Positions 48,970 through 57,546 of a stretch of 64,000 nt of DNA are shown here, piece by piece. The notes under the pieces are model-generated. The model searched no databases. It worked only from the letters and a program-made list of their open reading frames with translations, and was not told where the DNA came from. Position 1 is the stretch's first letter. Each line of letters starts with the position of its first letter. Location of the stretch: IMG/VR virus record IMGVR_UViG_3300043414_000372, positions 1 to 64,000 of that record, one strand, 5' to 3'. The position numbers were made by a program, and so were the translations under genes. Source of the DNA: a virus (Duplodnaviria > Caudoviricetes).

Positions 48970-51900
48970 TTATGCGTATGTAGCACCGACCGTATACCAT
49001 TGTGTAGTAGTAGGTGCTATGAATTGTAATGTAGCATTTGATACTTGAGTAAATCCTGCATTCGCTGCCAATGAATTAATTGTACCACCACTTGCTGGAT
49101 ATACTAATAAACTGTTAGCATTAGTATTAGTAATAGTTATTACCATACCTGCTACTGCTGTTGGCAATACTACACCGTTACCGGATGGTACAGTAGAAAC
49201 AATGTTCATCTCTTTAGTCAATGCAGTAGCAGTACCTTGAGTAGAACCTGCTGCTGTTATACCAGTAGCAACTGAACGTAAGTGATATGATGTTACTGTT
49301 ACGTTACTTGCTGAAATATTACCGTTTACAGTTAAACCAGTTAGTGTTCCAACTGAAGTAATATTACCTTGTGCTGCTGTTGTGACCGTACCTGCAGTTG
49401 TGGCACTAGTTGCGCTAGCTACAGTACCACTTACATTAGCACCAACCAATGAACTTAAACCATTACCGTTACCAGTAAACACGCCCGTATTTGCTGTAAA
49501 TGCTACAGCAGTTACTGTACCATTAACACCAAGTGATGTTAGCGTACCAACACTTGTAATGTTTGGTTGTGCTGCTGTTGTTATTACCGCTGTTGAGTAG
49601 TTTGCTGTTAACAAATTACCAGCATTAACATTACCTGCTGATATATTACCAGATACATTTGCATATCCCGTAATGTTTGCACCAGTACCAGTAACTGTCA
49701 TTGTTGTATTACCAACTGCTGCTATAGTTACATTACCGTTTGCTGTAGCGATATACACATTGCTGTTACCATTTGCGTGTGGCCCAATCAAGTTACCAGC
49801 AGTTACATTACCAGTAACACTTAAACTAGTTAATGTTCCAACTGAAGTGATATTGCCCTGAGCAGCCGATGTTACTGTACCTGCTGTTATTGCTGCTGTT
49901 GCTGTTGCGACTGCACCGGTTACATTAGCACCAACCAATGAACTTAATCCATTACCATTACCAGTAAATACACCTGTATTTGCTGTAAATGCTACTGCTG
50001 TTACTGTACCACTAACACCAAGTGATGTTAATGTACCAACTGCGGTAATTTGAGTTTGACTTGCATTAACACTAAATGTTGAACCAGTTAATGTTAATCC
50101 TGTACCTGCACTATATGTGCCTGCTCCAGAGAATTGTACCCAAGTGATTGATGTTGTTCCAACTGTGATTGGGCTATTTGTTGTACATGTCCAACCTGTA
50201 TCCGCATTAGTTGTTCCTAATTCAACAAACACGAATGCTCCTGGCATCTCGGTGCCTGCATCAAAGTCAGTAGAACGAGTCAATACCCATGCTACACTTG
50301 CAGTACCAACTGTTGTAACAGTATATATACCATTGAATGCTGCTGATTGTGTTGTATTATTAACAAATGCACCTGCTTCGTTCTTAACAAGAATACGATC
50401 ACCAACAGTTGGTGTATTACCACCGTCAAGAGTTAAACCAGCAGTTGTTCCGCTGTTAGTTAATGTTGCGCCAACACCGCTTGTTCCGTTGTTATAAGTA
50501 TATCCAGTGCCGCCATTACCAAACAATGTTGCTGTTGTAGCGTATACTACTGATGCTTTAGGATCAAGACCCTGTGCTGTAGTATCAACATAGTTTTTAG
50601 TAGCAGCATCAGTAGATGCCACTGGTTCAGCAAGACTTGTTATGTTCTTGGTTCCCATATTAACATTACCACTTAATGTTAATCCAGTTAATGTACCAAC
50701 ACTAGTAATATTTGGTTGAGCGTTTGTTGTTACAGTTCCTGCAGTAGTTGCTGCACCCGATAATGCTCCAACAAATGTAGTAGCAGTAATAGATGCGTTA
50801 CCTAAATTAGCACTAATACTTGTGTTAATCACAGCAGATGAATTACCATTTGCTGATGATGTAGAGAATCTTGGGTAAGCTGTAGTAGAAGTAGAAGTAT
50901 TCTGTAATAATGCTGCTGCGTTTGTCGCACTGCCTACTGTGCCAGTTACATTAGCACCAACTAATGAACTTAATCCATTTCCATTGCCAGTAAATACTCC
51001 TGTGTTTGCTGTGATATTAGCTGCTGTGATTGTTCCACTTACACCAAGTGATGTTAACGTACCAACACTTGTGATGTTGCCTTGTGCAGCAGTTGTTACT
51101 GTACCGGCGGTGCCTGCGCTTACTGCGTATGTTGCATTTGCTACTGTGCCAGTTACATTAGCACCAACTAATGAACTTAATCCATTTCCATTGCCAGTAA
51201 ATACTCCTGTATTAGCAGTAAATGCTACTGCGGTTACTGTGCCATTTACACCCAATGATGTTAGTGTACCAACACTTGTGATGTTACCTTGTGCAGCAGT
51301 TGTTACGGTTCCTGCTGTAGTTGCAGTTGCTGCTGCTAGATTAGCAACAGTAGTCGTTGAACTAACTGTTAACGGTGCTGTACCAGTAGCTATATTACTT
51401 GTGAATATATTAGCAAATATTACATTAGCGCCAGTTAAATTGCCGCCACTGCCGCCGCCTACTGTTAGATAGTTAGTTGTTTTGTCAAATGTTAAGTTAG
51501 CACTACCATTAGCAACACCTGTATCATTAAATATAACTTGAGTATTGCTACCGCCCAATCCTGATATACCAGTAGCACCTACTGCTCCAGTCGCACCTGT
51601 TGAGCCAGTATATCCCGTTGCGCCTGTAGCACCAGTTGCACCTGTGCTTCCAGTATAACCAGTAGCGCCGGTTGCACCAGTACTTCCAGTATATCCCGTT
51701 GCACCAGTAGCACCAGTAGCGCCGGTTGCACCAGTACTTCCAGTATATCCCGTTGCACCAGTAGCACCAGTAGCGCCGGTTGATCCAGTATAACCTGTAG
51801 CACCAGTAGCGCCTGTAGCACCTGTTGCACCAGTACTTCCAGTATAACCTGTAGCACCTGTTGCACCTGTTGCACCAGTACTTCCAGTATAACCTGTTGC

Positions 51901-54900: not shown

Positions 54901-57546
54901 TATATATCCAGTTGCACCAGTAGCGCCAGTACTACCTATTGTTCCTGTAGCACCAGTTGCACCCGTTGTACCTATGTAACCAGTAGCACCGGTTGCGCCT
55001 GTACTACCTATTGTTCCTGTAGCACCGGTTGCACCCGTTGTACCTATGTAACCAGTAGCACCGGTTGCGCCTGTACTACCTATTGTTCCTGTAGCACCGG
55101 TTGCACCCGTTGTACCTATGTAACCAGTAGCACCTGTAGAACCATCATATCCTGTAGCACCAGTTGCACCAGTTGCTCCAGTAGCGCCCGTTGTTCCTAT
55201 ATAACCAGTCGCACCAGTAGCACCAGTAGCACCAGTAGCACCCGTAGCACCAGTACTACCTATTGGACCTGTACTACCTGTAGCACCATCGTATCCGGTT
55301 GCACCTGTTGCTCCAGTTGATCCTATTGGACCTGTACTACCTGTAGCACCATCGTATCCGGTTGCACCTGTTGTGCCAGTGGCCCCTGTCGCGCCAGTTG
55401 CGCCAGTTGATCCTATTGTACCTGTAGCACCGGTAGCACCGGTTGTTCCTATGTATCCCGTTGCTCCAGTAGCGCCTGTAGCGCCTGTTGCTCCTGTTGA
55501 TCCTATTGGACCTGTACTACCTGTAGAACCATCGTATCCTGTTGCACCTGTAGCACCTGTAGCACCTATATATCCTGTTGCACCTGTTGCACCTGTACTA
55601 CCTATTGTACCTGTAGCACCTGTAGCACCTGTTGCACCAGTTGCACCAGTTGATCCTGTGTAGCCAGTTGCACCTGTTGCACCAGTTGATCCGTCATATC
55701 CAGTAGCACCTGTTGCACCTGTACTACCTATTGTACCTGTTGCACCTGTACTACCTATTGTACCAGTTGCACCTGTTGCACCTGTTGTTCCTATATATCC
55801 CGTTGCGCCAGTAGCGCCAGTACTACCTATTGTACCTGTAGCACCTGTGGCACCAGTAGATCCAATATTACCAGTTGCTCCGGTTGCTCCGGTTGTTCCT
55901 GTGCTACCTATTTCTCCGGTAGCACCTGTTGCTCCGGTACTTCCTATATATCCAGTTGCACCAGTAGCACCAGTAGCACCTGTTGCACCAGTGCTGCCTA
56001 TATATCCAGTTGCACCTGTTGCACCAGTACTACCTATATATCCAGTTGCACCTGTTGCTCCGGTACTTCCTATATATCCAGTTGCACCTGTTGATCCTAT
56101 TGTACCTGTTGCACCAGTTGATCCGTCATATCCAGTAGCACCTGTTGCACCTGTAGTCCCAACGTATCCTGTAGCACCTGTTGCACCTGTAGTCCCAACG
56201 TATCCTGTAGCACCTGTTGCACCTGTTGCACCTTGACCTGTAGCACCTGTTGCACCTGTAGTCCCAACGTATCCTGTAGCGCCTGTTGCACCCTGACCTG
56301 TAGCACCTGTTGCACCTGTACTACCTATTGTACCTGTTGCACCGGTTGCACCCGTTGTTCCTATGTATCCAGTTGCACCTGTTGCACCAGTTGTTCCTAT
56401 ATATCCAGTTGCACCTGTCGTGCCTATACCAGTAGCGCCAGTTGTTCCTGTATAACCTGTTGCACCGGTTGCGCCAGTGGATCCTATATAACCCGTTGCG
56501 CCAGTTGTTCCTGTATAACCCGTTGCACCGGTTGCGCCAGTATATCCTGTGGCACCCGTTGCGCCAGTTGCTCCAGTGGCACCTGTACTACCTTGATAAC
56601 CTGTTGCTCCTGTTGCTCCTGTGGCACCCGGCGGCGGAGCAAACCATACTCCATTACCGTATAACACATTTAATGAGTTGCCGTTTAAATTTATAGTTGA
56701 AATATTTCCTATGCCACTCACATTTGCTACAGCAACTGAATTAGCAGTTCCGGCAGTAACTGCATATGTAGCATTTGCTACTGTACCAGTTACATTAGCA
56801 CCGGTGATGTGATTTAATCCGGTGCCATTGGCTATAATTTTGTCAACAGTTAATGTATTAGAAGTATTATTGAATACAAAATTAGCACTACCTGCAAATA
56901 AGCCTGCATTGTTGTACTGAACTTGAGTATTGCTGCCACCTAATCCGCCACCTGCGCCAATATTAGTCCAAGCTAAATTTCCGGTGCCATCTGTTGTTAA
57001 TGAGTAGCCTGTTGTGCCACCGGTAATATGTACATTACCAACTGGTCCCAGTGTTACACTAGCTGTATTTGAGAAATTAACGTTTCCACTACTGTTGCTT
57101 ACTGTTAATCCGATTAAATTGCCTAATGAAGTGATGTTTGGTTGTGCATTTGAATTGCTAGTAAAAGTGCCATTAAATGACGCTAATCCGTTGCTAACAT
57201 TAGCAAAGTAATTACTTAATACGTGATTTGGATTAATATCAACAACCAAAGTTTGTGTTGAACTAGTGATAGTAGCGTTACTTCCACCGTTACTGCCTTG
57301 ACCAATACTTAACGAACTTGTAGCTACTTGTACACATGCTATATTGGCAGAAACAACAACATTACCTGTAGGATAATTAACAGTTATACCGGCTCCTGCT
57401 GTTCTATTAACAGACGTTACTGCCGCGTTTGCATTAGCAGCAAAAAGTTGGTCAAAGTTATTTTGTACTTTATCGAAAGCGGTTCTTATCGCATCAGCAG
57501 ACGGATCATCGGGGAACGATCCAAAATCTATGTTTTGTTGACTCAT
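48970..57546 (-). CDS. Giant collagen-like tail fibre protein (2858 aa)
   Basis: N-terminal [15 protein letters not shown] anchor, four G-X-T collagen blocks, C-terminal [15 protein letters not shown] repeats; perfect TATAAATA upstream (57559-57566). Confidence 0.85.
51560..56628 (-). repeat. Collagen-like (G-X-T)n coding repeat with three globular interruptions
   Basis: GATGATG(Y/T/N/E)(I/T/D)G(S/T)T units; interruptions near 52255-52330, 52800-53175 and 54550-54810. Confidence 0.95.
54929..55134. repeat. 72-bp tandem repeat, about 2.9 near-identical copies
   Basis: Units start at 54929, 55001 and 55073. Confidence 0.9.

Follow-up and report, generated by a model that had tools for sequence, protein, structure and literature searches.

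Collagen-like stalks are already known from the tail fibres of phages and prophages, such as EPclA of E. coli O157:H7 (PMC3368898), and Thr-rich viral collagens have been noticed statistically (PMC11923368). The stability of EPclA, which is much shorter than the protein described here, is attributed to abundant Pro in the X position and about 22% charged residues (PMC11923368). Gly-X-Thr repeats also occur in the surface filaments formed by the exosporium glycoproteins Bacillus BclA and C. difficile BclA3 (with SgtA), in which Thr carries O-glycans (PMC8968730). Among viruses, Mimivirus encodes proline-poor collagen-like virion fibre proteins (L71 and others) and itself supplies collagen-modifying enzymes, such as the lysyl hydroxylase/glucosyltransferase L230 (PMC9614988). 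Collagen goes unmentioned in a comparative review covering 224 jumbo phages (PMC7824862), and we found no paper describing fibres of this kind in jumbo phages. Here, we analyzed a window of 64,000 nucleotides, the first 64 kb of the 229,851-bp linear IMG/VR virus record IMGVR_UViG_3300043414_000372 (CheckV 61% complete), which belongs to an uncultured freshwater jumbo myovirus. One of its genes, P0001, encodes a giant fibre protein of 2858 amino acids (aa) that is dominated by a collagen-like shaft.

We propose that this protein is probably a homotrimeric, modular virion fibre with a collagen shaft. The proposal is built on the anatomy of the sequence, its synteny, the exchange of modules among its relatives and its homology to tail fibres, and from these we infer the triple helix, the trimeric state, the site of attachment and the function.

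Counted as uninterrupted Gly-X-Y runs of at least four triplets each, the protein contains 489 perfect triplets (1467 residues) in eight runs, which merge into four blocks separated by globular inserts of 80, 121 and 19 aa (referred to below as knuckle 1, knuckle 2 and the linker). Gly recurs at every third residue through up to 158 triplets, the longest unbroken run, and a chance origin is therefore impossible. Pfam Collagen (PF01391) matches the protein in 13 stretches (E = 2.4e-192). Within the blocks, there are four breaks that are one residue short (G-I-G, G-Q-G twice and G-L-G), of the G1G type familiar from real collagens. The triplet count and the Pfam match bear out a sequence-only reading that had seen a giant Pro-poor, Thr-rich collagen fibre with globular knuckles, and its estimates (~1450 residues and 480 triplets in four blocks, with a length of 400 nm) were accurate: The nominal triple-helix span is 1467 x 0.286 nm = ~420 nm.

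Thr occupies the Y position in 383 of the 489 triplets (78%) and Ala the X position in 249 (51%), with GAT as the commonest triplet (243), followed by GST (79). Roughly every fourth triplet is bulkier, G-(Tyr/Thr/Asn/Glu)-(Ile/Thr/Asp/Val). The collagen part (1475 residues) contains 434 Thr and 86 Ser, 6 Pro (0.4%), 0 Lys, 2 Arg, 16 Asp and 6 Glu, and KGE, KGD, RGE or RGD motifs were not found in it.

With EPclA, the fibre shares a Gly-X-Y stalk, putatively trimerising flanks and the lack of hydroxyproline. It differs by its 489 triplets in four blocks, its Pro content of 0.4%, the absence of Lys and the presence of Thr at 78% of the Y positions. BclA repeats are Gly-Pro-Thr, whereas X is Ala, Ser or Tyr here, and the fibre is about 5 to 20 times longer; by Pfam, no BclA-type domain was found in the C-terminal tip. 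Phage proteins with more than 1400 collagen residues can be set beside the collagens considered in PMC8968730. The likeness to Mimivirus lies in virus-encoded, proline-poor, collagen-like virion fibre proteins, but the L230 chemistry needs Lys in the repeats (0 here), and the host of Mimivirus is an amoeba, whereas that of the present virus is a bacterium. New at this locus are the largest repeat count seen, the near-total absence of proline and charge pairs, a swappable shaft in a conserved frame, and a predicted trimer node shared with a cultured phage.

The fibre gene lies within the tail morphogenesis module, behind the sheath, tube and tube-like genes. The gene order (tail sheath, tail tube, tube-like gene, four small genes, a low-complexity protein of 725-1079 aa, the giant fibre gene, an endolysin-like gene of chitinase/lysozyme type and an 826-aa Ig-domain protein) is kept in eight related IMG/VR loci, with neighbour proteins that are mostly 60-100% identical. 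The N-terminal region of the fibre has 363 relatives in IMG/VR, up to 82% identical, and the protein database contains 233 giant proteins related to it; its invariant positions fall mostly into columns 1-106. Between the conserved N-terminus (64-82% identity among orthologues) and the last 118 aa, which are conserved too (62-84%, with or without collagen), the middle of the protein is hypervariable, and complete orthologues range from 1284 to 3176 aa. Among the orthologues examined for synteny, the shaft contains 0 to 418 triplets: L019, L020, L024, L027 and L036 are essentially collagen-free and carry beta-repeat modules instead, L017 has 67 triplets, and L003, L010 and L006/L008 have 390-418. 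A further relative, L035, assigned by its N-terminus, has 470 triplets. The 489 triplets of the window fibre are the highest number seen among the relatives compared.

At least 20 triplets are present in 32 of the 80 loci kept, and in a tree built from the N-terminal 150 aa, collagen occurs in two clades and requires at least two changes of state. Both knuckles recur at differing positions and copy numbers in the orthologues. Knuckle 1 is 80% identical in L010 and present in two copies in L014, and knuckle 2 is 91% identical in L003 and 78% in L006. Therefore, collagen blocks and knuckles behave as cassettes, and the collagen appears from these comparisons as a swappable, length-variable shaft module. 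The 120 giant relatives listed by a word-indexed search with the N-terminus were free of collagen, which had suggested that collagen is unique to the window phage; the IMG/VR scan showed that this was a sampling effect. Giant Thr-rich collagen-like proteins are abundant in metagenomes (P0265, P0283 and P0270, with 483, 416 and 377 triplets, respectively). Cultured phages gave no match to the N-terminus by tblastn or to the flanks of the fibre gene by megablast. A tblastn search with a collagen block gave no match either, as expected from the low-complexity filter, and is uninformative on cultured phages.

The distal 857 aa connect the protein to tail fibres. At E <= 0.001, they have 20,796 representative relatives, and residues 2298-2472 are 36-51% identical (tblastn) to proteins annotated as tail fibres in phages of Pelagibacter, Methylophilales, Synechococcus, Limnohabitans and Ralstonia and match PHROG tail-fibre families, among them phrog_8745 (tail fiber) with E = 8e-24. 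One distal region of ~330 aa (residues 2301-2630) is similar in sequence to the tail fibre of Legionella phage LME-1 (PDB 9EFK, E = 9e-7), whose tail fibres are trimers present in six copies per virion by cryo-EM (PMC12407071). The LME-1 fibre differs in its length of 658 aa, in the absence of collagen, and in belonging to a T7-like podovirus. In the AlphaFold2 (AF2) model of the C-terminal tip, the last ~65 residues reach a predicted local distance difference test (pLDDT) score of 84-92. Foldseek found nothing for this model in the PDB at E <= 0.001; VIA-align gave middling matches to phage tailspike C-terminal/docking and baseplate domains (best 24qj, Z 7.4, root-mean-square deviation 1.8 Å over 72 residues), which is a hint only of a likeness to tailspike domains.

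The best relative of the distal part is a protein of 4183 aa (L002, 10001-22552). Encoded on a contig of 102 kb within a run of five large putative fibre genes, it combines 116 Ala/Thr collagen triplets close to the N-terminus with a C-terminal Peptidase_S74 chaperone domain.

Knuckle 2 was modelled in three copies, with 12 triplets flanking it on each side and an alignment of its own with three rows. The model reached an interaction prediction score from aligned errors (ipSAE) of 0.72, whereas the best of 3 controls stayed at 0.00; at least 74% of the contacts recur across the runs, with a partner pLDDT of at least 73. A score of 0.72 was reached by 20 of the 30 proteins solved as one-chain pairs and by 1 of the 23 solved as single chains, counts that hold only roughly here, given that the small alignment and the three copies depart from this calibration. 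The model supports, but does not show, that knuckle 2 is a trimeric node. In the ESM Atlas, knuckle 2 matched solely unnamed viral clusters.

A homologous domain with 60% identity over 134 aa is present in gp23 (P19250A_0023, APC43908.1; L083 6354-9959 = KX815270.1 21390-24995) of the Methylophilaceae phage P19250A, a cultured siphovirus of 38.7 kb with a freshwater methylotroph as host. This protein of 1201 aa contains 281 proline-free Gly-(Tyr/Ile/Phe)-Ser triplets, which flank the knuckle on both sides, and its gene is located after a J-like host-specificity gene and a tail-fibre gene. The two proteins share the 121-aa knuckle between two long collagen blocks, the tail-fibre gene setting and the freshwater origin. 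They differ in the repeat, Gly-(Tyr/Ile/Phe)-Ser rather than Gly-Ala-Thr, and in their N- and C-terminal domains, and P19250A is not a jumbo phage. Thus, one predicted node serves two chemically different collagens in very different phages. GenBank labels gp23 as "tail length tape-measure protein," and we consider this label almost certainly wrong.

Taken together, we propose the following working of the fibre. The N-terminal region (~150-300 aa) would fix it to the particle. The shaft would consist of four triple-helical blocks of ~201, 155, 53 and 80 triplets (~420 nm), bringing the whole fibre to ~0.4-0.5 µm, and would be thin, semi-flexible and hinged at the knuckles. The knuckles would most likely trimerise, hold the chains in register and start the folding of the collagen block that precedes each of them, since collagen zips from C to N starting at a trimerisation nucleus. 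Each collagen block does have a non-collagen module on its C-terminal side. The distal 857 aa, with beta repeats, tail-fibre domain and tip, would probably contact the host or accessory fibres. A long and flexible fibre could widen the radius of capture, plausibly an advantage where planktonic hosts are sparse, and the capture filament for dilute habitats put forward in the sequence-only reading is a reasonable suggestion. Shaft length would change by gain or loss of triplet units, thereby making reach an evolvable trait.

Features of the fibre gene and of other elements in the window (positions in the 64,000-nucleotide stretch)
Feature	Position	Strand	Basis or context
Giant fibre gene P0001, 2858 aa	48970..57546	-	Open frame of 2858 codons; Pfam Collagen; syntenic slot
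N-terminal conserved region, aa 1-306, probable virion anchor and first beta-repeat	56629..57546	-	363 IMG/VR relatives
Collagen block 1, aa 307-915, ~201 triplets, three G1G breaks	54802..56628	-	Triplet count
Knuckle 1, aa 916-995, 80 aa	54562..54801	-	Cassette recurrence in L010, L014
Collagen block 2, aa 996-1460, 155 triplets	53167..54561	-	Triplet count
Knuckle 2, aa 1461-1581, 121 aa, predicted trimer node	52804..53166	-	Homologues and three-copy model
Collagen block 3, aa 1582-1742, 53 triplets, one G1G break	52321..52803	-	Triplet count
Non-collagen linker, aa 1743-1761, 19 aa	52264..52320	-	
Collagen block 4, aa 1762-2001, 80 triplets	51544..52263	-	Triplet count
Distal beta-rich part, aa 2002-2739, seven '..NITSVGTLT..' modules	49330..51543	-	Motif count
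Tail-fibre domain, aa 2298-2472	50131..50655	-	Tail-fibre, PHROG and PDB matches
Conserved C-terminal tip, aa 2740-2858, small beta-sandwich in model	48973..49329	-	Orthologue identity, AF2
Invariant AACGATAAATAC motif, ~22 nt before ATG	57569..57580	-	10/10 orthologous loci (L003-L036 at ~9975-9990)
Terminator-like hairpin (ATACCCG..CGGGTAT and T run), behind upstream gene	57599..57627	-	Conserved with compensatory changes, 10/10 orthologous loci
Epimerase	554-1384		Beside queuosine/deazaguanine-type genes
Weak GT4-like gene (weak GT1-type hit)	1381-2724		Among GTP cyclohydrolase I, QueD-like and radical-SAM genes

The total number of repeats rests on one short-read assembly. Collapse or expansion of repeats could have put the repeat length off by more than ~20%, an error that the degenerate repeats over 4.4 kb would favour, as would the longest exact internal DNA repeat (107 bp) and a single recent-looking array of 72-nt units (3.7 copies, 92% identity). 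Two contigs, each of another sample, agree fully (100% identity) across 1136 aa save for one collagen indel of 27 aa (9 triplets, 81 nt), and repeat number therefore appears either to vary in nature or to be uncertain by a few units. We nevertheless regard so large an error as improbable. The frame is open throughout 8.6 kb, the exact repeats are below typical read length, synonymous codons are well mixed (GGT/GGA/GGC, ACA/ACT, GCA/GCT), and independent assemblies of other samples have the same layout with 390, 392, 418 and 470 triplets. In addition, short contigs of two public runs (X2 and X1, the latter possibly the source sample) agree with the gene at many places without any difference. 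The public runs that hold the window are labelled as freshwater metagenomes; in the top two, 0.91 and 0.73 of its sampled words are present, and these runs may be the source sample. No public Logan contig spans the gene, which is tiled by pieces of a few hundred bases, and many short joints among these contigs (20-35-base sides) resemble cross-matches between collagen repeats; the Logan contigs thus neither confirm nor refute the total length.

Several points weigh against a trimeric collagen fibre. It is known here from sequence and models, and its total length comes from a single short-read assembly. The AF2 monomer model of the N-terminal 200 aa (pLDDT 59, predicted template modelling score 0.22) is too poor for a structure search or for placing the attachment, and receptor-binding proteins do not usually have a conserved distal tip. 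The confident contacts in the model of knuckle 2 lie almost all inside the knuckle, with few in the collagen flanks. The usual stabilisers of collagen, imino acids and inter-chain Lys-Glu/Asp salt bridges, which are typical of the family without strictly defining it, are lacking in the collagen part, and this lowers confidence in the stability of the helix, not in the collagen repeat class. Finally, Ac-(Gly-Pro-Thr)10 is a random coil unless glycosylated (quoted in PMC11923368), so that an unmodified helix may be marginal here. The missing imino acids and charge pairs and the sparse contacts in the flanks would fit a Gly-X-Thr part that forms no triple helix at all, being a disordered mucin-like spacer or another polyproline-II/glycine fold. 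We consider this very unlikely. A disordered spacer needs no Gly at exact third positions over 158 triplets, and the orthologues all retain the periodicity although they have diverged heavily, at synonymous and nonsynonymous sites alike, and differ in their X/Y preferences. Each of the collagen blocks is closed by a globular module, of which the one modelled in this respect is predicted to trimerise. Polyglycine-II (PGII) bundles require turns every ~10 residues, whereas a strict three-residue register does not. If a triple helix is formed, its Thr could be O-glycosylated by phage-encoded enzymes, with the sugars stabilising the helix as in BclA or the cuticle collagen of vent worms. The 434 Thr and 86 Ser of the collagen part are in line with this, and glycosylated Thr is the standard explanation for Thr-rich collagens (PMC11923368; PMC8968730). 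The record also holds sugar genes: a glycosyltransferase (GT) gene of the GT2 family at 124.5 kb, two epimerase genes (0.8 and 115 kb) and two places with a weak GT1-type hit (1381-2724 and 8453-9628). The sequence-only reading had gone further and tied the fibre to a phage GT-A/GT4 enzyme and an epimerase, a link that is not supported; both lie 46 kb away. No open reading frame (ORF) between 37.7 and 63.7 kb matched a GT family, and no GT was found within 10 kb of the fibre gene in either direction. The sole clear PF00535 (GT2) match of the 230-kb record, 67 kb away, is an ORF of 244 aa and too short for an SgtA-type enzyme with GT-A and TPR parts. The GT4-like gene, whose neighbours are given in the table, has a 75%-identical orthologue in G002, a 100%-complete relative of 348.7 kb with a fibre without collagen and no PF01391 match anywhere in its genome, and thus the GT4-like gene does not depend on a collagen substrate. 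In contrast to BclA3-SgtA, no adjacent or SgtA-type transferase was found in the 10-kb flanks and the 61%-complete record, a coverage by which the absence of a dedicated enzyme is not shown. Sugars added by enzymes of the phage are therefore, in our view, a doubtful though conceivable source of stability, and glycosylation by another phage enzyme or a host enzyme is possible.

A different set of alternatives accepts the repeat but changes the role of the protein. As a large gene downstream of the tube genes, with a relative that carries the GenBank label cited above for P19250A gp23, it could be taken for the tape measure protein. This we can hardly credit, because the length of the protein varies among close relatives and because it has fibre domains: Tape measures are alpha-helical, with a length that is tied to that of the tail and hence conserved in close relatives, but this protein spans 1284-3176 aa although the small tail-module proteins encoded nearby are mostly 60-100% identical between the phages, and it contains a tail-fibre domain. 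Moreover, its composition of collagen and beta-repeats is not alpha-helical, and the P19250A gene follows, rather than precedes, the J-like and tail-fibre genes. It is less far-fetched, though still unlikely, that the protein is a virion fibre attached elsewhere than at the baseplate, such as a whisker at the neck or one of the hair-like structures that decorate sheath or head in jumbo phages like Atu_ph07 and 121Q. Atu_ph07 bears hair-like fibres on head and sheath (PMC7824862), and its tail tube is the best named match of the tube-like protein encoded in the window. In addition, the fibre gene adjoins small tail/neck-type genes and not recognised baseplate genes, and the protein is conserved at its two ends, in contrast to a typical receptor-binding tip. 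Against such a position speak the distal domain, which is common to annotated tail fibres and the structurally shown LME-1 fibre, and the location of the P19250A relative behind a J-like gene; neither fixes the attachment site here.

Returning to the collagen shaft that we favour, the means of its stabilisation deserve attention. Malcor et al. 2025 (PMC11923368) noted an anomalously high frequency of TGA and TGP triplets among the collagen-like proteins of bacteria, archaea and viruses and argued that KGE/KGD salt bridges are general clamps of very long, interrupted helices. The G-A-T repeats of the fibre correspond to the TGA class, but a protein of 489 triplets with no KGE/KGD clamp departs from this folding code. 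Either sugars carry the load, or an intrinsic mechanism does, with beta-branched Thr, periodic Tyr/Ile triplets, trimer nodes and low temperature. We suggest that Thr at Y, regular Tyr/Ile triplets, trimeric nodes and a cool habitat might suffice, with or without sugars. A bolder conjecture, which we rate as unlikely, is a stable helix of ~0.4 µm without imino acids, salt bridges or glycosylation, held by Thr at Y, periodic Tyr/Ile triplets and re-registering trimeric knuckles, with its reach tuned in nature by triplet gain and loss. An unmodified stable helix of this type would represent a third, sequence-only way of stabilising collagen. It would also be, to our knowledge, the longest appendage reported for a tailed phage.

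The surroundings of the fibre gene show further features. The AACGATAAATAC motif ahead of the gene is a candidate late-type promoter element of this phage clade: ACGATAAATA occurs twice in the window (0.25 copies expected), and the second copy (42980-42991, -) precedes the endolysin-like gene. A copy of TATAAATA, the late-promoter word of T4, stands 13 nt ahead of the ATG, but the word is not enriched in the window (5 copies compared with 9.2 expected) and was rejected. Tube-type genes occur in tandem in the clade, with a 210-aa tail tube upstream, beyond the window (L003 2851-3483), and the tube-like protein of ~400 aa (62480-63700, -), whose best named relatives are tube proteins of the jumbo phages Atu_ph07 and PA5oct. 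Directly upstream of the fibre gene, a highly charged, low-complexity protein of 953 aa is encoded (57645-60506, -), with poly-Q, a duplicated KKGVNPFAKKD and Cys clusters; its relatives have 725-1079 aa and conserved ends. A 145-aa gene in the tail module (61667-62104, -) matches both the PHROG "head closure" (E = 1e-44) and the Pfam TnsA-like endonuclease N-terminal domain (E = 7.5e-21), and one of these conflicting annotations is probably misleading.

Two genes directly downstream of the fibre gene (44257-48952, -), of 538 and 948 aa, share their first ~33 residues, continue with a short G-A-T collagen stalk (~9-12 triplets) and end in globular parts that are unrelated. Each is trailed by a small ORF (76 and 128 aa), and a glycine-rich gene of 282 aa comes after these cassettes. 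At the equivalent place in L003, L010, L024 and L027, these stalk-gene cassettes and the 282-aa gene were not found, and the endolysin-like gene directly follows the fibre gene. Pfam and PHROGs gave no family for the N-terminus of the fibre, for both knuckles, for the tip or for the globular parts of the neighbours.

For collagen biophysics, these proteins offer natural test cases for a long helix without proline, hydroxyproline or Lys-Glu/Asp clamps, and they bear on the salt-bridge folding code and on whether Thr needs sugars. The shared knuckle points to the cultured pair P19250A and IMCC19250 for examining the fibre, the trimer node and any glycans, and the annotation of P19250A gp23 is corrected in that it is almost certainly not a tape measure. 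The knuckles may also serve as registration domains for designed bacterial collagens. For phage biology, the fibre combines fixed ends with a shaft that is exchanged between beta-repeat and collagen designs and ranges from 0 to ~490 triplets, and fibre reach thus looks freely evolving in freshwater jumbo phages.

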